From the IMG/VR virus record IMGVR_UViG_3300012347_000106, positions 4,476 through 68,475 of that record: a DNA stretch of 64,000 bases; one strand, given 5' to 3'. Below the pieces are notes generated by a model, which was not told the DNA's origin, made no database searches, and saw only the letters and a program-made list of their open reading frames with translations. Below are positions 1-13,681 of the stretch, one piece after another. The position numbers and the translations under genes are program-made. The DNA is from a virus. Positions within the stretch are counted from its first letter, which is position 1. Each line of letters opens with the position of its first letter.

Positions 1-1579
1 TCTTGCCAACCACATTCTGCTCGAACCAGCCTTTGGTTGTAGATGGGGCAATGCCCGTATCCATCACGTTCTGCAGGGTGAATGGCGCAGCCGCCTCGCC
101 ACCGCGCAGTGGCAGTTTGAATTGGTACGGCCCCGTGCGGGCGTATGGTGGCACCGGGGTAGGTGCGCCGGGAGTGACGGGCTCCACTGCGGTTGGGACC
201 GGGAGGGCTCCGCCGCCTTCTTCAGGGAACAGCTCGGATTGTGTTCGGGCCTTGACCGCATCGGGCTGAGTCAGCAGGTCAGGCGCATTGGCCAACGCGG
301 GGAATTTCTGGCGAGCCTTGGCGTCGTCTGCCGCAGCAGCCGCTTGCGCTTCTTTCGCAGCGCGGATGCTTTCAATGTCGCTCTGGGTGTAGAGCGCCAT
401 CTGTTCGGTCAGCTCGGCTACACGGGCTTTGACTTCAGGGGTTTGCGGCTGCTGCTTGAGGCGTTCGCGCTCTTGCGCCAGCTCTGGGTACCCGCGCTGG
501 AAATCCAACCCCAAGTCCTGCTGCCCCTCGGTTTTTGTCAGCTGCTGCGTAATGGCGTCGATTCGAGCCTGTGTCTCTGGCGTAGGTGCTTCGGCGCGCA
601 GTGCATCCCGTTCAGCCATCAACTCTGGCATTGTGGCAGCAGGTGCTTCTCTCGCGGCGACGGGCTTGCCCATCTCCTCGGGTGTGAACATGGTGCCTTG
701 AGTGCCGGGTGCTGCATCGACGGGCAGTTGGGCTCCGGGCTGCGCCGGTGGTGTTTCGCCGGGTGTTGTCTTCGCTCCCCGGGCGCGACGGCCGAGGGCC
801 AAGTCCATCAGGCCCTGCACAAGCGCGCCGGTGGCACCACCATACGCGGCTTGCTCACCCAGACCATCAATCAGTTCTTGCTCGGGTTTGTACACACCCT
901 TGGCAATGAGGTTTTGCGCGAATCCTGATGCAGCTTCTTGGGCCGCCTCTTCGCCGCCCGCGATCAGTGCACGCTTGACAGCCTCGACCCCCGCAGCTTT
1001 AGACGCCGTTGGGATGCGGGACAAGATGCGGACCGGGGCGAACGCTTCCAGCGCGCCGGGTACCATACCCAAGGCAGTCGCCTTACTGCGTTGTTCATCA
1101 GTTGCCCCAGCCTCCTCCGCGCGCGTGCGGGCTTCACCGGCACCGGCTCCGACACCCATACCGACTGCCGCTGCGCGGCCAGCCCAGCCAAACGGGCCGG
1201 TCAACAAGAATGGGGCTGTGGAGCCGACGGCTTCGCCCAACTTTCGAGATATGGCGTCTTCGTACCCGGCGTTTGCAGCAAACGGCTCTTTGGCAGCAGT
1301 GGCCACCGACTTGATCTTTTCCCGAGCGGATTTCTCCATGTCCTCGGGGAGCAGCGCGGACGCGCCAGTGGCGGCACTTTCCACCAAATTAACCGCGCCG
1401 GGGACGAGACCCTTGAACGCTTCCTTGACATGCCCGAGTGCTGTGGTTTCTGGGGGCTTCGCTCCAGCGTCCGGGTTTTGCGCCAGTACGGCTTGTGCCA
1501 CCTCCGCATCACTTGCCCCCGGTGGGCCCTCAATCTGGTAGGTTCGTCCGTTGGGTGCTGTGATGCGGTAGAGTGGCAT
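1..1579 (-). CDS. virion-associated protein, Ala/Gly-rich, N-terminal part only (runs off left edge)
   Basis: Manual minus-strand translation from the ATG at about 1579 (MPLYRITAPNGRTYQIEGPP...) stays open to position 1. The plus-strand ORFs here (122..928, 702..1541, 938..1660) are low-complexity antisense shadows. The start lies a few nt after the stop of the preceding late gene. Confidence 0.5.
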   Translation of the reverse strand, partial: MPLYRITAPNGRTYQIEGPPGASDAEVAQAVLAQNPDAGAKPPETTALGHVKEAFKGLVPGAVNLVESAATGASALLPEDMEKSAREKIKSVATAAKEPFAANAGYEDAISRKLGEAVGSTAPFLLTGPFGWAGRAAAVGMGVGAGAGEARTRAEEAGATDEQRSKATALGMVPGALEAFAPVRILSRIPTASKAAGVEAVKRALIAGGEEAAQEAASGFAQNLIAKGVYKPEQELIDGLGEQAAYGGATGALVQGLMDLALGRRARGAKTTPGETPPAQPGAQLPVDAAPGTQGTMFTPEEMGKPVAAREAPAATMPELMAERDALRAEAPTPETQARIDAITQQLTKTEGQQDLGLDFQRGYPELAQERERLKQQPQTPEVKARVAELTEQMALYTQSDIESIRAAKEAQAAAAADDAKARQKFPALANAPDLLTQPDAVKARTQSELFPEEGGGALPVPTAVEPVTPGAPTPVPPYARTGPYQFKLPLRGGEAAAPFTLQNVMDTGIAPSTTKGWFEQNVVGK

Positions 1580-3220: not shown

Positions 3221-4770
3221 TGACCTTCCATCATGTCGGCAATCGCCAAATCCATCAACCCGCCGGAGGCGTACCCGCGAGCGACACCGCCCTTGGCCAT
3301 CAGCTTGCTTGCGCCATAGGCTGCAGTGCCGAGACCCGCCACCTGAGATGCCGCACTGGGTGCGGCCGAGTACATAGTCTGTGTTGAGCCAGACGGCGTG
3401 CCGCGCAGCAGGTTGGATTGGAACTCCAGTTGCTGGTATGGGAACTTCTGCTGGTTCTGGAAGTCTTCGTACTGCTGGCTAAGGACGTTTTGCACCTGCT
3501 GCTGCTGCTGTGTGCCGTACGCATTCTGCAGCTTGTTGACGTCCATGGCCTGACCAAACTGCTGGCCACCAAGTGCACCCAACTGACCTGCGCCTGTGAG
3601 CGCGGTCTGCAAGCCCTGAAGGCCGAGACCTGCACCGTATTGGCGAGACTGCTCTTCGAGCTGCTGCGCGGCCTGACCGTACTGCGCTCCGGCTTGTGCA
3701 CCCGTCATTGCCTGCTGTGCAGCAAACTGGTTCGCTGCCTCTTGGGCTTGCTGGGCCGACATGCCGTACTGGGCCTGCAACTGAGCGGCGCTCAAGCCTT
3801 GACCTGCACCAAACTGACGAGACTGCTCCGCCAACTGTTGGGCGTTCAAGCCGTACTGCTGGTTTGCCAAGGCTGCCTGAAGGCCCGTCTGCGCGCCGAG
3901 CTGTTGAGTGCTCAGTTTGGAAGCCAAATTCTGCTGACCCACAGTCAGTCCAGCCTGTTGGTTGGCTTGCTGCGCCTGCAGTCGAGCGGCCTGCTCTTGG
4001 TTGAATTGCTGCTGAGCCTGCTGGTATGCGGCCTGTGAGCCTGTGGCTTGAATGTCACCAAGCTGCGTGCCGAGGTTGCGCTGGCGCTCCGCTTCGACGA
4101 TGGCCTGACGAGAGCCGCCGAACGCGCCTTGGCCTACCGCTTGTGCTTGGTTCTGATTGCGCTGAATTTCCGAGGCGCGCGTTGCTTCGCGCTGCTGCAT
4201 TCCAACAACGCTCTGCATGTACGGCGACATGTAGGCTTCTGCCGCGTTTGGCTGGGCAAACGACTGCGTGCGAACCTGCTGCGCCGGGCCCATGCCGTAC
4301 TGGTTGAGCTGCGGTGCCTGCACTTGCTGCGCGTTGAACTGCCCGGTTTCATATTGGCCCGGGGCTTGGAAGGGGTTCTGGAACTGCGATGGGTTGTACT
4401 GACCCGGAGCTTGGAACTGGTTCTGGAACTGCCCGGCATCATAACCCGTGTTGAGTGCGCGATCGGACGCTGTTGCTGCTGTTGCCGCACCCAAACCTGT
4501 TGCCGCCGAAGGCTGCATTGACCCAGCGCCTTGGAAGGCTTGCTGCTGCAGTGGCGTGAACTGCGCTGTGCGCTCACCTTGGTAGGCTTGGTACGGCGAG
4601 TTGGACAGTGCAGAGCCTTTGCCCAGCACTTCTTGCGCGTAGGGTTTGGCCCAGTCTGGCAGGTCTTGGGTCTGCGTTGTGCTAGATGGACCTCCGCCAC
4701 CGCCGCCATCCATTGGGTAGAGACGCCGGTTGTCGGCTGAGTAGCCGCTGAATTTGTTGCCGATAATCAT
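3217..4770 (-). CDS. Gln-rich low-complexity virion protein (putative internal/ejection protein)
   Basis: The ORF track gives 3217..4884. I moved the start to the in-frame ATG at 4770, which overlaps the GNAT gene stop (ATGA coupling) rather than giving a 118-nt overlap. The protein has long Q/A/G-rich repeats. Confidence 0.5.
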   Translation of the reverse strand: MIIGNKFSGYSADNRRLYPMDGGGGGGPSSTTQTQDLPDWAKPYAQEVLGKGSALSNSPYQAYQGERTAQFTPLQQQAFQGAGSMQPSAATGLGAATAATASDRALNTGYDAGQFQNQFQAPGQYNPSQFQNPFQAPGQYETGQFNAQQVQAPQLNQYGMGPAQQVRTQSFAQPNAAEAYMSPYMQSVVGMQQREATRASEIQRNQNQAQAVGQGAFGGSRQAIVEAERQRNLGTQLGDIQATGSQAAYQQAQQQFNQEQAARLQAQQANQQAGLTVGQQNLASKLSTQQLGAQTGLQAALANQQYGLNAQQLAEQSRQFGAGQGLSAAQLQAQYGMSAQQAQEAANQFAAQQAMTGAQAGAQYGQAAQQLEEQSRQYGAGLGLQGLQTALTGAGQLGALGGQQFGQAMDVNKLQNAYGTQQQQQVQNVLSQQYEDFQNQQKFPYQQLEFQSNLLRGTPSGSTQTMYSAAPSAASQVAGLGTAAYGASKLMAKGGVARGYASGGLMDLAIADMMEGQ

Positions 4771-6612: not shown

Positions 6613-7251
6613 TTACGGGGGTGTCGGTCTAGGGTCTGGCAGTGGGCCGATGAAGTTCACCGACATCACTGAAGACGGGATTCCGGGGTGTGGGCTGGTT
6701 GCGGTATCAGCGGCAAGCTGCACAGTTGTGTCCGAGGCGGAAATCATCAACTCCAGATACTCCCCGACTTGCATGTCAATGTCGAAAGAATACGCAACCG
6801 GGGCATAAGCTCCGGGGCCAGAAATGGTGTATGCGCGGGTGGAATACCCAATGTCTGTGCCATTGCGTCGAATCCACAGAAACACGTTCTTTGAGCTGTT
6901 GTTGGTGCTTTCAAGCTGTCCGCTGAATTGGAAGTTGTATATACCACCAATCCCGATCAGGATTCGGCTGGTCGTGCTCAGCGACACCGCATTACTCAGA
7001 TATGTGGCGTTATACACCACGGGGTACGCTGTGTTAGCAGCTGCAATCGTCTGGTCCGCAGTATTGAAGAACAATCCTGATGGACAATCCACGAACCTTC
7101 CGCCGTTCACCCCCAAGACCGAGGACAGCGCGTTGTCGAGCTGGTTGAAGTACAGACGCAGCACATCGCTGTGCTGGTTGTGGAAGCGCGGCTCGTACTC
7201 CTGCGGGGCAACCGGCAGGAACGGAGGGCGGGTAATGGTGAGCCGGGTCAT
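6613..7251 (-). CDS. structural protein (tail-associated), hypothetical
   Basis: 212-aa ORF with a 4-nt overlap with the upstream 647-aa gene. Confidence 0.5.
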   Translation of the reverse strand: MTRLTITRPPFLPVAPQEYEPRFHNQHSDVLRLYFNQLDNALSSVLGVNGGRFVDCPSGLFFNTADQTIAAANTAYPVVYNATYLSNAVSLSTTSRILIGIGGIYNFQFSGQLESTNNSSKNVFLWIRRNGTDIGYSTRAYTISGPGAYAPVAYSFDIDMQVGEYLELMISASDTTVQLAADTATSPHPGIPSSVMSVNFIGPLPDPRPTPP

Positions 7252-9191
7252 CGGCGGCCATCCGGACGAATGTCAATTGACGGCACGCCAAGCTGCCACT
7301 GCACGCCCAGCCCGTCAGAGCCGACCCGGAACGCCATCTGGCGACCGCGCACACGGGTGTACACAATCTCGGTGAACTGCTGCACCACGTAGTTGCGCTG
7401 GCCCTGATAGTTCTGGGCGCTCACGACATCCGGGGCGGGCGCTGTGCCGTAGTTTGAGCCCGGGTTCTGCCGAGGGCGCACGGTGAATGTGACCGAGGGG
7501 TTGTTCACGTACGAGCCGTCAAACGTCACGTCGGGGATCATGCGCCACACAAAGCCGTAGTTGTGGCCGTCGCCAATGTTGATGTCGGCAGACTGGATGT
7601 AGGACTCGATTGCAGTGGGTGGGTTGGTTGTGCCGTCGTCCACGCCGTCTTCGTGATAGATCAACTGGCCGTTGTAGCCTGCTGCCGTCGGGAAGTCACG
7701 CAGTGGTGAGTCAACCCAAGCGGTGCGCGCCATGTTTCCGTACGACCAAATTTTCTCCAAGTGGTTGTACACCACGTAGCGGTCGATCTCGGTCGAGTTG
7801 GCCGAGCAGTAAAACCACCAGATTTCGTTGAAGCCTTCGTTGGTGCTGGCAAAGAACTGGTACTGCTGCTGCAGGTTAATGTCGCCGAAGATGTACTGGC
7901 GCAGGGGGCAATAGAGCGTTTCCACACGACCGGAGTACATGTAGAACTTGTCCAAACCCATCCAGTACGTGACGTTCGCGGCCGTGGCAATTGCGTTCGG
8001 GCCAGCAATTGACAGGTTTGCACCCAAAATCTGGAAGCCCCAGACGTACGGCGGGCCAAGGTACTGCATGGAGTACAGGGCTGCATCTGTCCACACCAAG
8101 ATTTCTTGGCGAGTCTGCAGGTTGGCCACGATGGACGAACCCGTGCTCAGGCGGTAACTGCCCGCTTGGTTGGTTGCTGCGGGTGCCCACATGGCGTAAT
8201 TTTCTTGGTCTGACCAGCGAACCAAGAGCGGGTCAATGGCTGTTTCACCGTAATCATTGCAACCAAAAGCCAGCACAAAACGAGAGGCGTCTGAGACGGC
8301 AACCGCATTGCACACCGACGGGCAGCTTGTGTCGGTGGTGTACGGAGAGGGGCTGGTTGAGCTAAGCAAAACCGCACGGTCGTAGACAGTCGGGCTGGCA
8401 TTCACCTTCCACAGGTACAGAGCGCCGCCCCGGGGGTTGATGATGAGGTCTTGGCCGTAGTTGGCCTGACTCCAGAGGCGCATTTGAATGTCCACGCCAA
8501 GGCCGCCCGGAGCGGCTTCACCCCAGCCTGTAAGCGTGCCGCCAGAATCCCCACCCCATCCGCCAGCACCCCAGCCAACACCCGTGGTGTAAATTTCGCC
8601 ACCAACAGAAACTTGATACGCAAAGTCCGCCGCGCCTGTTGTGCCAGACGACGTGGCAGGCGATGAAACCGTGATGCTGTATGTGTTCGACGTGAGGTAC
8701 GTGATGCGGAACTCTTGGTTTAGGGCTGCAGCCGGAATGCCGTTGATGGCTCCACCGACTCCGGAAATCGTCACAAAGTCCCCCGTAACGCCGTTGTACC
8801 CGGTGTCATTCACCACCACAGTGGTCGAGCCATTCGTCGTGGTGAAAGCGTTGGACGCTACTGTGCTCTCCAAGCGAAGCGGCGTGATGTCGTAAAAATT
8901 ACCGCCAGAGGTTTGCTGTATGTAGTATTTGAGGTTTGTGCCCAGCCCCATCAGGTTGAATCCGGACAGCGTGATCCAGTTCCACAGAGATCGGCAAACA
9001 CCCCAGAATGAGCCAGTAGGCGGCTGCAGTGTTGCCTCTGCCGTACCGGTATCCAGCGTCCAGCCACCAATTTTCTCGGGGTAGCCCGAGCGAAAGCGCA
9101 CCTTGTCCATCTCGAACCAAGTGCCTTCATTGGCCAGTGATGTCGATTCTCGGTTGACGCCGGGTCGTAGCTGGAGTTTTTGCAATGGCAT
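7248..9191 (-). CDS. large tail protein (putative tail tubular/nozzle-type), hypothetical
   Basis: 647 aa, beta-rich. It follows the lysis cassette and homing endonuclease in the late operon. Confidence 0.5.
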   Translation of the reverse strand: MPLQKLQLRPGVNRESTSLANEGTWFEMDKVRFRSGYPEKIGGWTLDTGTAEATLQPPTGSFWGVCRSLWNWITLSGFNLMGLGTNLKYYIQQTSGGNFYDITPLRLESTVASNAFTTTNGSTTVVVNDTGYNGVTGDFVTISGVGGAINGIPAAALNQEFRITYLTSNTYSITVSSPATSSGTTGAADFAYQVSVGGEIYTTGVGWGAGGWGGDSGGTLTGWGEAAPGGLGVDIQMRLWSQANYGQDLIINPRGGALYLWKVNASPTVYDRAVLLSSTSPSPYTTDTSCPSVCNAVAVSDASRFVLAFGCNDYGETAIDPLLVRWSDQENYAMWAPAATNQAGSYRLSTGSSIVANLQTRQEILVWTDAALYSMQYLGPPYVWGFQILGANLSIAGPNAIATAANVTYWMGLDKFYMYSGRVETLYCPLRQYIFGDINLQQQYQFFASTNEGFNEIWWFYCSANSTEIDRYVVYNHLEKIWSYGNMARTAWVDSPLRDFPTAAGYNGQLIYHEDGVDDGTTNPPTAIESYIQSADINIGDGHNYGFVWRMIPDVTFDGSYVNNPSVTFTVRPRQNPGSNYGTAPAPDVVSAQNYQGQRNYVVQQFTEIVYTRVRGRQMAFRVGSDGLGVQWQLGVPSIDIRPDGRR

Positions 9192-9200
9192 GTTGGCCTC

Positions 9201-9917
9201 TTAGGTGAGCACGGCCAGCGCGTGGTTGATGTGCTTGATACGGTCTTCTGATCCCATTATCTCAGGGGAGGGTTCGTTTGTCACCAGTCGTCTTTTGGCT
9301 TCCGCTCTGGCCTTTGCCAAGGCTGAAAGTTTGGCTTTTGTTGCATCCGACATCGGCTTCCCAATTCTGGATACCGACATCCGAGCGCGTGTTTCTGGAG
9401 ATTTCTTTCTACCCTTGTGGGCAGCAGACATTTTTTGGCGCGTCTCAAGCGGAATTTTCCGCCCCATCTTGGCAAGTGAAAGTCTTGCGCGAACCTCGTC
9501 CGACGGGCTCACCCCTTTGTTTCCCGGCGATTTTCCGGTTTGGGCTTCTGCAAGTTTGGCTCTGTGCTCGGCACTTTTTGGTGGGAGTTTTTTCCCCTTG
9601 TGCGCCATCGACATTTTTTGTCGCGTTTCCATGCTGTGCTTGGACCCTGACGCGCCCTCTCCGCCAAGCGTCATGTTTACCAGTGGTACCCTCATGTCTG
9701 CAAAGCAAGAGATTAAAAAGCGCTCATGCAAGAAAGCCTCTTCTTCTGTCGGCCAGTACGCAACAACTTCAGCTTGAAAGCTGTGCTTTGCAGCAACTCT
9801 TTTCCAATACTCACTGCGGCCGTGTATAGAATGGGCGCGGGAGCCGCGTCCTTTGCCGATGTAAAAGACTTTGCCATCCGACTTGCGGACGTGCAGGTAC
9901 GTGTAAAAGCCAGTCAT
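9201..9917 (-). CDS. GIY-YIG homing endonuclease with NUMOD3 DNA-binding repeats
   Basis: N-terminal YTYLH...FYIGKGRG...R..E (GIY-YIG core). There are 5-6 tandem NUMOD3-like repeats (ETRQKMSxAHKGKK). The C-terminal 15 aa resemble the C-terminus of the adjacent endolysin. Confidence 0.85.
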   Translation of the reverse strand: MTGFYTYLHVRKSDGKVFYIGKGRGSRAHSIHGRSEYWKRVAAKHSFQAEVVAYWPTEEEAFLHERFLISCFADMRVPLVNMTLGGEGASGSKHSMETRQKMSMAHKGKKLPPKSAEHRAKLAEAQTGKSPGNKGVSPSDEVRARLSLAKMGRKIPLETRQKMSAAHKGRKKSPETRARMSVSRIGKPMSDATKAKLSALAKARAEAKRRLVTNEPSPEIMGSEDRIKHINHALAVLT

Positions 9918-10513
9918 GCAGCGAGCACTTCCAGTGCATGCTTAATGTGTTTGATGCGGTCATCCAACCCAATAACGCCACCATTTATTTTTTTCGTCAT
10001 CCCGGTGTAGTCCTTGGCGTCAGCCTCTTTGTTCAGACCGCGCTTGTTCCAGAACCATGCAGCGCTCAGGGCGGCGTACTTGGGGGACAAGATCAGGTCA
10101 GGGGAGTGGATGAAGTCCTCGCCCAGCGCGTCGCCGCACAGGGTGTAGTTGTCCTTGCCTGTGAGCTGAATCAGGCCACGCCCTTTGTACAGGCTACCTT
10201 CTTCCGTCTCTTCGGTGCCGTTGCCCATCCGGCCGCCGTAGACCTTGTTGGCGATCTTGTCGGGGTTGCGGTGGTACGGCTGAGCTGACTCCAGCGTGGG
10301 GAACCGGCTGGGCCAGACACGGCACAGGGACTCGGCCGAGTAGTTCAGGTTCTCCTGCAGGGTCTTGAAGTTGCCAGACTCGTGTGCGCACTGGCCAATG
10401 AACGCCGCCATCCGCAGGGGGGTGTTGATCTCGTAGCGCTGAAAAGCCTCGTTCAGCGGGCCCAGCCAATCTTCGGAGATGTGCAGTTCTTTGAGCTGTT
10501 CAGCGGTAATCAT
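9914..10513 (-). CDS. endolysin, glycoside hydrolase family 19 (chitinase-like lysozyme)
   Basis: QCAHESGNF and YKGRGLIQLTGKDNY catalytic-region signatures of GH19. 4-nt overlap with the holin-like gene. Confidence 0.85.
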   Translation of the reverse strand: MITAEQLKELHISEDWLGPLNEAFQRYEINTPLRMAAFIGQCAHESGNFKTLQENLNYSAESLCRVWPSRFPTLESAQPYHRNPDKIANKVYGGRMGNGTEETEEGSLYKGRGLIQLTGKDNYTLCGDALGEDFIHSPDLILSPKYAALSAAWFWNKRGLNKEADAKDYTGMTKKINGGVIGLDDRIKHIKHALEVLAA

Positions 10514-12088: not shown

Positions 12089-13681
12089 TTACGCCGTCCG
12101 TTTCCACATGTACACGGTGATGTACGGCTGGTAGTTTGCGTTTGTTCCAGATGCGCCTGCGGAGTCAACAGTCACGGTGTGCGTGTGGCTGCCAGCGGTG
12201 TCTGTCACCATGGTCGTGTAAGGGCCACCGTCAAGGCTACCCCGAGTTACGTTGTACGTATCCCCTCCGTACGCGTAGCCGTTAGTGTTGCCGTTATTGC
12301 TTGTTTTATGATTGTGTGAACCAGCAGTATCTGTGCTTGCTGTGTGCGTGTGGCTCACATTGATGGCGTCAGCACTACCGCCAGTCTCTTCTGCGGTATT
12401 AAACAGTGCGTTGCCGGAATCAAAACCAACAGGCACGCGCCCGGCACCGAACGCCGACCATGTGCCAAAGCCCAGCAACGAGCTAGGGTTGGCGCTGTTG
12501 GTGGCGTTTATGTATACCGATCCGACAGGGTGCAGCGCTTGCAGTGCGGCCTGAACAAACGCAGTCGTGGCCATTGTTGTGTTGCTGGTGCCAAAAGTCT
12601 GAGTTGTTCCGGTGGCCGCCGAGGCTACAGTGGTTGTGACCGTGGATGCATTTGTGGCGTTCGTGGCGTTTGTGGCGTTCGTGACCGCAGTGGAGCCGAT
12701 CTGCCCAACAATGTCAGCCGCACTGGCCACAGAGATCGCACTGGTTCCTGCGCCTTTGAGCAAAGCGCCAGAGGTGAACGAAGATGCGCCTGTTCCGCCA
12801 TCGGCAACAGCCAAGTCGGTAATCCCCGTGATCGAACCGCCAGTGATTGCCACGCTGCTGGCGGCCTGCGTTGCCATGGTTCCAAGGCCGAGGTTTGTTC
12901 GTGCATCTGCGGCAGTTGAAGCACCCGTGCCACCATCTGCAACTGCTAAATCTGTGATGCCCGTAATGGAGCCGCCGGTAATTGACACGCTACTTGCCGC
13001 CTGTGTGGCCATGGTGCCGAGGCCAAGGTTTGTTCGTGCATCTGCGGCAGTTGAAGCCCCTGTACCTCCATCTGCCACGGCCAAGTCGGTGATGCCGGTG
13101 ATGGAGCCGCCAGTAATCGCTACGTTGTTAGCCGCCTGTGTGGCGATCGTGCCCAGACCCAAGTTGGTGCGCGCATCCGCAGCCGTCGAAGCGCCCGTGC
13201 CACCATCTGCAACTGCCAAATCAGTAGCCAGAGTCAGGGATGACAGGTGGTTGTTCTGGAACACAAAGTTGGTTCCGTCTGACCACACGGTGACGGTCTT
13301 GCCCGCAGGGATTGCCACACCCGTACCGGCTGCAGTCGTGTTGCCGATCACGGTCGAGTTGTAGATCGTGGCGGTATAGCTGCTGGCGTTGTAGATGGTG
13401 TACTGCTTTGAGGCCGGGGGCGCATACACGGCAAAGTTGGCACCAGTGGATGTGGTCAATGCAATGTTTGCGTGCACGGACTGGTTGAGCGCTGCAGTTG
13501 CAGAGCCGCCGTTGATGTACGTCAGCGCTTGACTGGCCGAAGCCACAGACACAGAAATGTATCCCGCCACCGCCTGCTCAATGACGTAAGCCAAGTTGGT
13601 GTTGGTCGTTGTACCCCACGTACCGGCTTGATCGCCGGTTGTGATGAGTTCAATACGAAGGTCTGGGGAGTAGGTGCTCAT
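12089..13681 (-). CDS. tail fibre protein with tandem Phage_fiber_2-type repeats and C-terminal HxH tail-collar-like domain
   Basis: About 3.5 copies of a 44-aa repeat (DLAVADGGTGASTAADARTNLGLGT.ATQAA..V.ITGGSITGIT). The C-terminal HTHTASTDTAGSHNH...HTHTV motifs are typical of fibre tip domains. Confidence 0.8.
   Translation of the reverse strand: MSTYSPDLRIELITTGDQAGTWGTTTNTNLAYVIEQAVAGYISVSVASASQALTYINGGSATAALNQSVHANIALTTSTGANFAVYAPPASKQYTIYNASSYTATIYNSTVIGNTTAAGTGVAIPAGKTVTVWSDGTNFVFQNNHLSSLTLATDLAVADGGTGASTAADARTNLGLGTIATQAANNVAITGGSITGITDLAVADGGTGASTAADARTNLGLGTMATQAASSVSITGGSITGITDLAVADGGTGASTAADARTNLGLGTMATQAASSVAITGGSITGITDLAVADGGTGASSFTSGALLKGAGTSAISVASAADIVGQIGSTAVTNATNATNATNASTVTTTVASAATGTTQTFGTSNTTMATTAFVQAALQALHPVGSVYINATNSANPSSLLGFGTWSAFGAGRVPVGFDSGNALFNTAEETGGSADAINVSHTHTASTDTAGSHNHKTSNNGNTNGYAYGGDTYNVTRGSLDGGPYTTMVTDTAGSHTHTVTVDSAGASGTNANYQPYITVYMWKRTA
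12690..13270 (-). repeat. intragenic tandem repeat, about 132-nt unit x about 3.5 (tail fibre repeat region)
   Basis: Near-identical 132-nt units visible directly in the nucleotide sequence (gcagttgaagc.cc.gt.cc.ccatctgc.ac.gc.aa.tc.gt.atgcc.gt.atggagccgcc.gt.at.g..acg.t..t.gccgcctgtgtggc.at.gt.cc.ag.cc.ag.tt.gt.cg.gcatc.gc). Confidence 0.85.

Follow-up and report, generated by a model that had tools for sequence, protein, structure and literature searches.

Which of two look-alike gene ends belongs to a phage lysis gene, and how did the other copy come to lie beside it? The question is raised by a locus within a 64,000-nucleotide stretch of viral DNA (IMG/VR virus record IMGVR_UViG_3300012347_000106, positions 4,476 to 68,475; hereafter the window), where the gene for a GH19 endolysin is followed directly by a homing endonuclease gene (HEG) that ends in DNA similar to the end of the lysin gene. 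The genome is that of a phage of ~62 kb with virion, lysis, and tail-fiber genes and with relatives in IMG/VR. Our answer, in which we have considerable confidence, is that a 716-nucleotide mobile cassette consisting of a substitute lysin end (tail A) and the HEG has inserted in the 3′ end of the endolysin gene, displacing the native end downstream, where it persists as a relic (tail B) at the end of the HEG. The parts of the locus, in coordinates of the window, are as follows.

10513..9914, minus strand: endolysin (GH19), 199 amino acids (aa), an open reading frame (ORF) with the C-terminal end ...GLDDRIKHIKHALEVLAA before its stop.
10001..10513, minus strand: native lysin body, codons 1-171, with GH19 matches and 86-88% nucleotide identity to the HEG-free loci L001, L005, and L120.
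9914..10000, minus strand: tail A, the putative replacement lysin 3′ end, codons 172-199 plus stop, encoding MTKKINGGVIGLDDRIKHIKHALEVLAA, delimited by a drop in identity, GC content, and recoding.
9914..9917, minus strand: ATGA overlap of lysin stop and HEG start, read directly in the sequence.
9917..9201, minus strand: HEG (GIY-YIG/NUMOD3), 238 aa, an ORF with the C-terminal end ...GSEDRIKHINHALAVLT before its stop.
9285..9917, minus strand: HEG proper, residues 1-211, by NUMOD3, PHROG 314, and I-TevI profile match.
~9663..9917, minus strand: GIY-YIG nuclease domain, by family profile.
~9318..9647, minus strand: NUMOD3 DNA-binding repeats, by Pfam.
9201..9284, minus strand: tail B, the putative relic of the native lysin 3′ end after its displacement, coding in frame for HEG residues 212-238.
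9201..9251, minus strand: 3′ part of tail B, intact.
9252..9284, minus strand: 5′ part of tail B, eroded.
9189..9203, minus strand: TAAGAGGCCAACATG, with the native lysin stop, a ribosome-binding site (RBS), and the next gene's start, essentially the same junction as in L001, L005, and L120.
7248..9191, minus strand: gene for a 647-aa virion structural protein (PHROG 3287, E = 3e-52).

The endolysin body matches Pfam Glyco_hydro_19 (E = 1.6e-10) and the PHROG 181 endolysin family (E = 8e-79), and the alignment of the lysin to solved GH19 endolysins reaches residues 195-198, nearly the C-terminus, so the lysin end belongs to the GH19 fold. A first-pass annotation made from the sequence alone had placed a GIY-YIG/NUMOD3 HEG directly after the endolysin with a 4-nucleotide overlap, and both the ORFs and the ATGA at 9914..9917 bear this out. 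NUMOD3, the modular DNA-binding region that follows the nuclease domain, was matched in three stretches (Pfam, E = 3.5e-18), and the protein matches the PHROG 314 homing endonucleases (1.4e-30). The Pfam GIY-YIG family (PF01541) gave no match to the single HEG sequence, for which only LEM-3 GIY-YIG appeared, at an E-value of 0.18; a family profile of 22 homologs matched the I-TevI catalytic domain (1LN0) with E = 1.9e-11 over profile positions 5-85, and Y7, Y19 (in Y19-x-G21), G21, and E65 are invariant in the family. The NUMOD3 stretches, the PHROG 314 match, and the family-profile match to 1LN0 together lead us to assign the 238-aa ORF to the GIY-YIG/NUMOD3 enzymes. Its ratio of nonsynonymous to synonymous substitution rates (dN/dS) is ~0.12 against the HEG of locus L122 and 0.11-0.15 overall, indicating purifying selection; because the GIY-YIG catalytic positions are conserved as well, the enzyme is probably active. 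The HEG has a GC content of 52.7% and has no paralog elsewhere in the window, and no terminal repeat was found between the window ends. The ATGA overlap of lysin and HEG is also present in L122, L241, L242, and L245 and suggests translational coupling of the two genes; tail A carries a Shine-Dalgarno-like GGAAG/GAGGT 9-15 nucleotides ahead of the HEG ATG. At its other end, the HEG ORF has its stop inside TAAGAGGCCAACATG, which opens the 647-aa gene.

The best local DNA alignment between the lysin gene and the HEG is that of their 3′ ends, with 38 of 51 nucleotides identical (74.5%) and a score of 25, as against 11.7 ± 1.2 and a maximum of 16 in 300 shuffles. The similarity of the two gene ends is far beyond chance. 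It also extends upstream of the 51-nucleotide core: over the adjoining 30 nucleotides, the relic compared in locked register with the native ATGACAAAGAAG... segment has 20 matches in L122, 18 in L242, and 14 in the window, whereas other offsets give ~8 ± 2.4 matches with a maximum of 15-17. We therefore estimate the duplicated segment at ~87 nucleotides, corresponding to lysin codons 172-199, with the 5′ third of the relic (~33 nucleotides) eroded in the window. On this extent, the native part of the HEG would comprise residues 1-211, and residues 212-238 would be lysin-derived. The first-pass annotation had described ends of ~55 nucleotides that were ~70% alike; the similarity stands, the length was underestimated, and the end coordinate proposed for the feature, 9965, lies inside tail A at no feature boundary.

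To establish which copy is native, we searched IMG/VR for relatives carrying the lysin and the 647-aa gene, of which hundreds are present; a blastn search of INPHARED found no related locus, only weak matches of ~66% identity to endolysin genes. Among 45 related loci with both flanking genes, 37 are HEG-free, with the lysin stop 7-21 nucleotides from the next gene, as expected from the prediction that such relatives would have a single contiguous lysin 3′ end. Presence and absence of the HEG are thus polymorphic at one identical site, and a HEG of 92% aa identity occupies the same place in L122, L159, and L160, the last being the same contig as L122. The nearest HEG-free alleles, L001, L005, and L120, have lysins of 93-96% aa identity that end in ...GACCGTATCAAGCACATCAACCACGCGCTGGCCGTGCTCACCTAAGAGGCC..ATG, and the GACCGTATCAAGCACATCAACCACGCGCTGGCCGTGCTCACCTAAGAGGCC-type ending is that of the window HEG ORF, not of the window lysin. 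From the DR codons through the stop (9201..9245), the relic is identical to L001 at 44 of 45 nucleotides, compared with 32 of 45 for tail A; the L001-type HEG-free allele includes ...GGGATGACAAAGAAGATCAACGGCGG.... The relic also keeps the native TAAGAGGCC..ATG junction seen in HEG-free L001, and with it the native type of TAAGAGG..ATG coupling to the next gene. Across the 51-nucleotide core, it matches L001, L005, and L120 at 46 positions and its own tail A at 37.

This relationship holds in two lineages, where the relic core is 88-94% identical to HEG-free alleles of its own lineage and 71-73% identical to its own tail A. The relics of the window and L122 are 88-94% identical to the tails of L001, L005, and L120, and the relic of L242, an independent HEG-bearing locus, is 88% identical to the tail of HEG-free L037, so that each relic tracks its own phage lineage. 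Because the relic matches both the HEG-free tails and their junction, we interpret the HEG tail as the native lysin end, displaced along with the junction that originally linked it to the next gene. The earlier proposal that a HEG had invaded the 3′ end of the lysin gene gains support from this match between the single end of HEG-free relatives and the HEG-borne copy. It had left a choice between a displaced end on the HEG and a replaced copy on the lysin; the comparisons favor both at once, with a native tail on the HEG and a replacement tail on the lysin.

The replacement character of tail A emerges from the same alleles. Between the window and L001, identity is 87% in the lysin body and 70% in the last 87 nucleotides (Fisher p = 2e-4), and between L242 and L037 it is 92.7% and 70% (Fisher p = 3e-8), whereas comparisons of HEG-free with HEG-free alleles showed no significant drop. 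Overall, identity to HEG-free alleles is ~87% in the body but 70-76% in tail A. Tail A has a GC content of 43.7% and the lysin body one of 60.8%. Of 10 codons that differ from L001 in the stretch of 14 upstream of the core repeat, nine carry synonymous changes. The window and L122 agree at 91% in tail A and at 90-91% in the HEG, but at only 73% in the flanking 647-aa gene; between distant cassette lineages, the figures are ~64% for tail A, 65-67% for the HEG, and 71-74% for the lysin bodies. Tail A tracks the HEG and not the lysin body between cassette lineages, and HEG-bearing lysins are mosaics. By this indirect, comparative test, the 87 nucleotides upstream of the HEG are cassette-linked and foreign to the lysin body, as in co-conversion of a flank, and tail A is best read as an imported replacement copy that belongs to the cassette. 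A target-site duplication by staggered cut was considered and rejected, since the copies are 51-87 nucleotides long, ~70-75% identical, and of different origin, and I-TevI-like GIY-YIG enzymes leave 2-nucleotide overhangs.

A search of 5.8 billion proteins with the HEG returned six proteins that cover 93-100% of the query (P0001-P0006), and these, with one further homolog, are listed with identity to the window HEG, C-terminus, and context.

P0001-P0003: 90-100%; C-terminus ...EDRIKHINHALAVLT; the L122/L159 HEG (92%) stands in the order lysin-ATGA-HEG-647.
P0004: 68%; C-terminus ...DDRVAHINTALSVLTA, a lysin-type tail; on an 842-nucleotide contig.
P0005: 64%; C-terminus ...DDRVAHINTALDVLSA; lysin-ATGA-HEG-647 homolog.
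P0006 (L242): 68%; relic out of frame through a 1-nucleotide deletion; lysin-ATGA-HEG-647 homolog.
P0007 (L245): 52%, covering 87%; own stop after ...DKTINH; lysin-ATGA-HEG, with another downstream gene.

P0001 is identical to the window HEG and present on three contigs. Relics are clear in P0005 and P0006; in L242, the lysin frame still encodes DRVAHINTALNVLTA and a stop, and in L245, ...LHTNEALAVLAQ and a stop are encoded ~50 nucleotides past the end of the HEG, in a frame other than that of the HEG. With HEGs only 52-68% identical at the same site, the cassette is an old and diversified lineage, and the description of the window locus as a one-off "frozen snapshot" of homing does not fit. 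The recurrence bears equally on whether the locus could be an assembly chimera of the lysin ends of two strains. The window and all its relatives are indeed metagenome assemblies; however, the architecture recurs across independent samples and assemblers, in P0001 (three contigs), L122/L160, L159, L252, L239-L241 (three samples), L242, and L245-L247, and the recurring copies differ by lineage-specific sequence. We give a chimera almost no credence.

The lysin-like tail is absent from more distant HEG homologs, including P0012 in a non-lysin context, and in 104 annotated phage records the HEG matches listed end by residue 191, without the tail. The tail therefore belongs to the insertion site and not to the enzyme family; a C-terminal motif shared by unrelated proteins, which the first-pass annotation had named as the finding that would speak against a homing footprint, was not seen in HEG homologs outside lysin genes. 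Because it is frameshifted in L242 and the probable relic of L245 lies beyond the HEG stop, the relic looks passive and dispensable. The contrary reading is that the lysin-like tail serves the HEG as a functional C-terminal module, a shared motif or exapted helix under selection. It would account for a tail that is in frame in the window, L122/L159, P0003, P0004, and P0005 and whose 3′ part is free of disabling mutations. In addition to the frameshift in L242, the early HEG stop in L245, and the tailless homologs outside lysin genes, two observations count against it. The relic DNA matches the local HEG-free allele fully or almost fully, synonymous sites included, a pattern that fits its exchange whenever the cassette homes and does not fit selection for a peptide; and the G-L that is invariant in lysins is degenerate in the HEG copies (GS, DL, NS, NL). 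A functional module is accordingly a very improbable explanation of the tail.

The position of the insert can be read in two ways. The extended register bounds it at 9285..10000 on the minus strand, at about codon 172; a multiple alignment with HEG-free alleles puts the 716-nucleotide insertion at 9967..9252, flanked by ATTGGG/ATGGG. Relative to HEG-free alleles, the insertion point thus falls at lysin codon 172-183. The ATGA overlap shifts the HEG out of the lysin frame, hence the length of 716 nucleotides. The insertion site, in the block coding for MTKKINGGxIG, belongs to the four 10-codon stretches of the lysin with the highest nucleotide conservation in 133 HEG-free alleles, the conserved block being GACTACACCGGGATGAC; high conservation is typical of homing targets. 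In HEG-bearing genomes, the intact native site sequence occurs in neither copy, as tail A is recoded (ACG AAA AAA ATA AAT) and the relic is eroded. Between L242 and L037, only the holin and lysin module (93%) and the relic (89%) are shared, and the downstream genes are unrelated; therefore, both homology arms for double-strand-break repair lie inside the lysin gene.

Removal of 9252..9967 restores an intact 198-aa lysin, the same length as in HEG-free alleles, as would be expected if the HEG were carried by a group I intron or intein and self-splicing joined the body to the downstream tail to make the true lysin. Group I introns are known in lysin genes of other phages. Rfam, however, gave no intron match even at E up to 10, and coding sequence, made up of tail A and the HEG ORF, fills the whole 716-nucleotide insert, so that a ribozyme core would have no place in it. 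In every HEG-bearing lineage, the lysin runs in frame to a complete and conserved end of its own, closed by a stop. An intein is excluded because the lysin stop precedes the HEG, whose own ATG is set in a frame other than that of the lysin body. We regard splicing as having a negligible chance of being correct.

Under the insertion of a mobile cassette, its first part would be a foreign, mostly synonymously recoded set of the last 28 lysin codons plus stop; tail A completes the lysin ORF in phase, and the lysin would stay complete and functional. The second part would be the GIY-YIG/NUMOD3 HEG gene, which starts on the lysin-ending ATGA and would lack a stop codon of its own; its ORF would run in frame into the native lysin end and borrow the old lysin stop, preserving the stop-RBS-start junction. 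During co-infection, the HEG would cut HEG-free lysin alleles in the conserved MTKKINGG-coding block, and the break would be repaired from the HEG-bearing genome, with the lysin body as the upstream arm and the relic as the downstream arm. The cassette would then be able to home into any related lysin, whichever gene follows. Each homing event would exchange the 3′ part of the relic for the recipient's own sequence, which would explain why that part is pristine and lineage-specific and the junction-proximal part eroded. The 25-30% divergence of the repeat and the split target site would shield the HEG-bearing allele from self-cleavage and from deletion by recombination between the repeats.

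Several points weigh against this account. An exact donor of tail A was found neither among the 133 HEG-free alleles nor by an exact 23-mer scan of metagenome contigs, the best HEG-free match being ~80%, and between distant cassette lineages tail A is no better conserved than the HEG. Homing and cleavage, the target site included, are inferred from comparison of alleles. The L245 segment is a probable untranslated relic on moderate evidence (p about 0.005-0.01). The HEG-bearing state is rare in the data, with three retrieved loci from two IMG/VR contigs as against at least 595 lysin loci. The first two of these points would also be expected if the duplication had arisen in place, by tandem duplication or sloppy repair, and tail A had diverged there, perhaps because cleavage or recombination between the repeats was selected against, without ever being imported. 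Faster in-place evolution of tail A thus keeps some residual weight, and we judge an in-place origin improbable. The L242-L037 contrast amounts to 7% divergence in the body and 30% in the last 87 nucleotides; changes that are mostly synonymous and lower the GC content to 43.7% fit foreign DNA, not local drift; and the duplication occurs in none of the 133 HEG-free alleles. The tail-A 23-mer is, moreover, natural in low-GC lysins that are plausible donor types.

Five loci were recovered with that 23-mer. Two are further HEG-bearing loci (L248 and L252), and two (L249 and L251) are low-GC (41-46%) HEG-free GH19 lysins that naturally carry the 23-mer, making them candidate donor-type lineages for the lysin end of the cassette. 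A further HEG-free locus, L250 (the same contig as L184), has a lysin body 94.9% identical to L001 and a native tail, with six tail-A-type substitutions within 16 nucleotides at codons 173-178, at the 5′ boundary of the duplicated segment. The patch looks like a short conversion tract left by break repair without gain of the HEG, or by loss of the HEG, and L250 may be a cleavage-resistant allele. It was recovered through the same 23-mer search, so its ascertainment is biased.

Variation around the locus was seen in other relatives. L131 has, at 1406-2251 on the minus strand, a different 281-aa ORF that is GIY-YIG-like and NUMOD3-like, as judged by sequence motifs only; it stands between the lysin (801..1409) and the homolog of the 647-aa gene (from ~2136), in opposite orientation. 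Its position at the same junction of lysin and structural gene implies that this junction has been colonized by HEGs more than once. At L081:3480-3992, an unrelated 170-aa lysin, GH108-like by eye, replaces the GH19 lysin next to a 647-aa gene 90% identical to that of the window. As L081 and the comparison of L037 with L242 show, the lysis module is mosaic in this phage group, with the HEG site coinciding with an exchange boundary. Downstream of the 647-aa gene, the window carries a 212-aa gene (6613..7251, minus strand) with 32% aa identity (E = 2e-37) to a homolog in L038. In L018, L038, L040, L041, and L043, the space that separates the lysin from the 647-aa gene was considered as a possible HEG site and rejected; it holds a 217-218-aa structural-type gene homologous to window 6613..7251, a local rearrangement of gene order. 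In HEG-free L037, the 180-nucleotide gap between the lysin and the next gene contains a 56-aa lysine-rich ORF (4595-4765). Elsewhere in the window, a 530-aa tail-fiber-like ORF (12089..13681, minus strand) contains at 12798-13222 a 135-nucleotide tandem repeat of 3.1 copies at 79% identity, encoding 45-aa repeats (DLAVADGGTGASTAADARTNLGLGT...ITGGSITGIT), and a 9-nucleotide repeat of 3.3 copies (NATNATNAT) lies at 12654-12683.

The arrangement calls for caution in annotation: the 27 C-terminal residues of the HEG would be lysin sequence, and the 28 C-terminal residues of the lysin would stem from another phage. Any domain prediction, phylogeny, or engineered lysin based on such genes would be chimeric. 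The comparison predicts lysin codons ~172-179 as the HEG target and, with respect to phage mosaicism, places a HEG at the boundary where lysis and structural modules recombine in this phage group. HEG-free alleles and fresh, eroded, frameshifted, and probable untranslated relics would form a natural series showing the persistence and decay of the element. A description of an end-replacement cassette in phages was not found in the literature, which is weak evidence given incomplete coverage. We raise only tentatively, as something we would not yet expect to hold, that this is the first recognized phage case of a general and overlooked "self-patching" HEG cassette, with a substitute gene end, both homology arms within the target gene, and no intron or intein. 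If so, such cassettes could be common in phages yet escape annotation, since each would pass for a pair of ordinary ORFs; they would exchange gene ends among phages and be markers of module-exchange boundaries, and short conversion patches such as that of L250 would pinpoint the cleavage site and create resistant alleles.

Among known systems, I-TevI of the T4 td group I intron has a homologous N-terminal catalytic domain, in which the Tyr, Tyr-Ile-Gly, and Glu align with the HEG; I-TevI is intron-encoded, whereas the HEG has no intron, and beyond the nuclease domain only NUMOD3 was matched in Pfam. SegB, SegE, SegF, and SegG of T4-like phages are free-standing GIY-YIG HEGs associated with "intronless homing" (PMC2988022, PMC2330249). 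Like them, the phage HEG is free-standing, has NUMOD3-type repeats, and is variable among relatives, and its mobility would likewise be expected to proceed through a double-strand break in a HEG-less genome with co-conversion of flanking markers. In contrast, seg genes sit between genes and cut a neighbor, whereas the cassette lies within what was ancestrally coding sequence and supplies a substitute for the end of that gene. A review of T4 mobile elements contains no word beginning "duplicat", and under the terms looked up it treats intergenic HEGs and gene-splitting insertions only (PMC2988022). The same review gives as HEGs that split phage genes mobE in Aeh1 nrdA, mobA in T4 gene 60/39, and a seg gene in gene 43 of Aeromonas phage 25 (PMC2988022). 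These are, like the present HEG, free-standing inside an essential conserved coding region, without intron or intein and with host function kept; in them, however, the host protein consists of two reassembling polypeptides, whereas the lysin stays whole through the end that the cassette supplies, and the displaced piece is a relic. Splicing elements and gene splitting are two ways for a HEG to live inside an essential phage gene; the cassette would represent a third, in which a replacement is carried for the displaced part at little cost.

The closest parallel is provided by mobile ORFs (mORFs) with carboxy-terminal replacement, known from atp6 of Allomyces macrogynus, atp6, atp9, cox2, and nad3 of Glomus sp., and atp9 of Rhizopus oryzae (PMC3630166; PMC6279837). 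Their order is host-gene body, inserted foreign C-terminus in phase, endonuclease ORF, and native C-terminus downstream (PMC3630166). For the native copy in Glomus, identity to ORF-less relatives is 91-98% and to the inserted copy 64-81%, and in Glomus atp9, the enzyme is of the GIY-YIG type and the inserted end is ~51 nucleotides long at 71% identity (PMC3630166). The phage locus has the same three-part design, with a repeat of 51-87 nucleotides at ~70-75% identity: insertion at the 3′ end, an in-phase C-terminus that completes the host gene, and a native end downstream that is closer to ORF-less relatives. By its sequence organization, we would class it as an mORF-type element in a new type of host, a phage lysis gene, which lies outside the described range of a class defined in fungal mitochondria. 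It differs in that the host gene serves phage lysis and not mitochondrial respiration, in that the phage HEG starts on an ATGA overlap with the stop of the host gene, in the style of a bacterial operon, and in that the HEG ORF ends in the fused relic, where the coupling signals of the next gene are retained. The phage case further offers several diverged cassette lineages together with many HEG-free alleles in one population.

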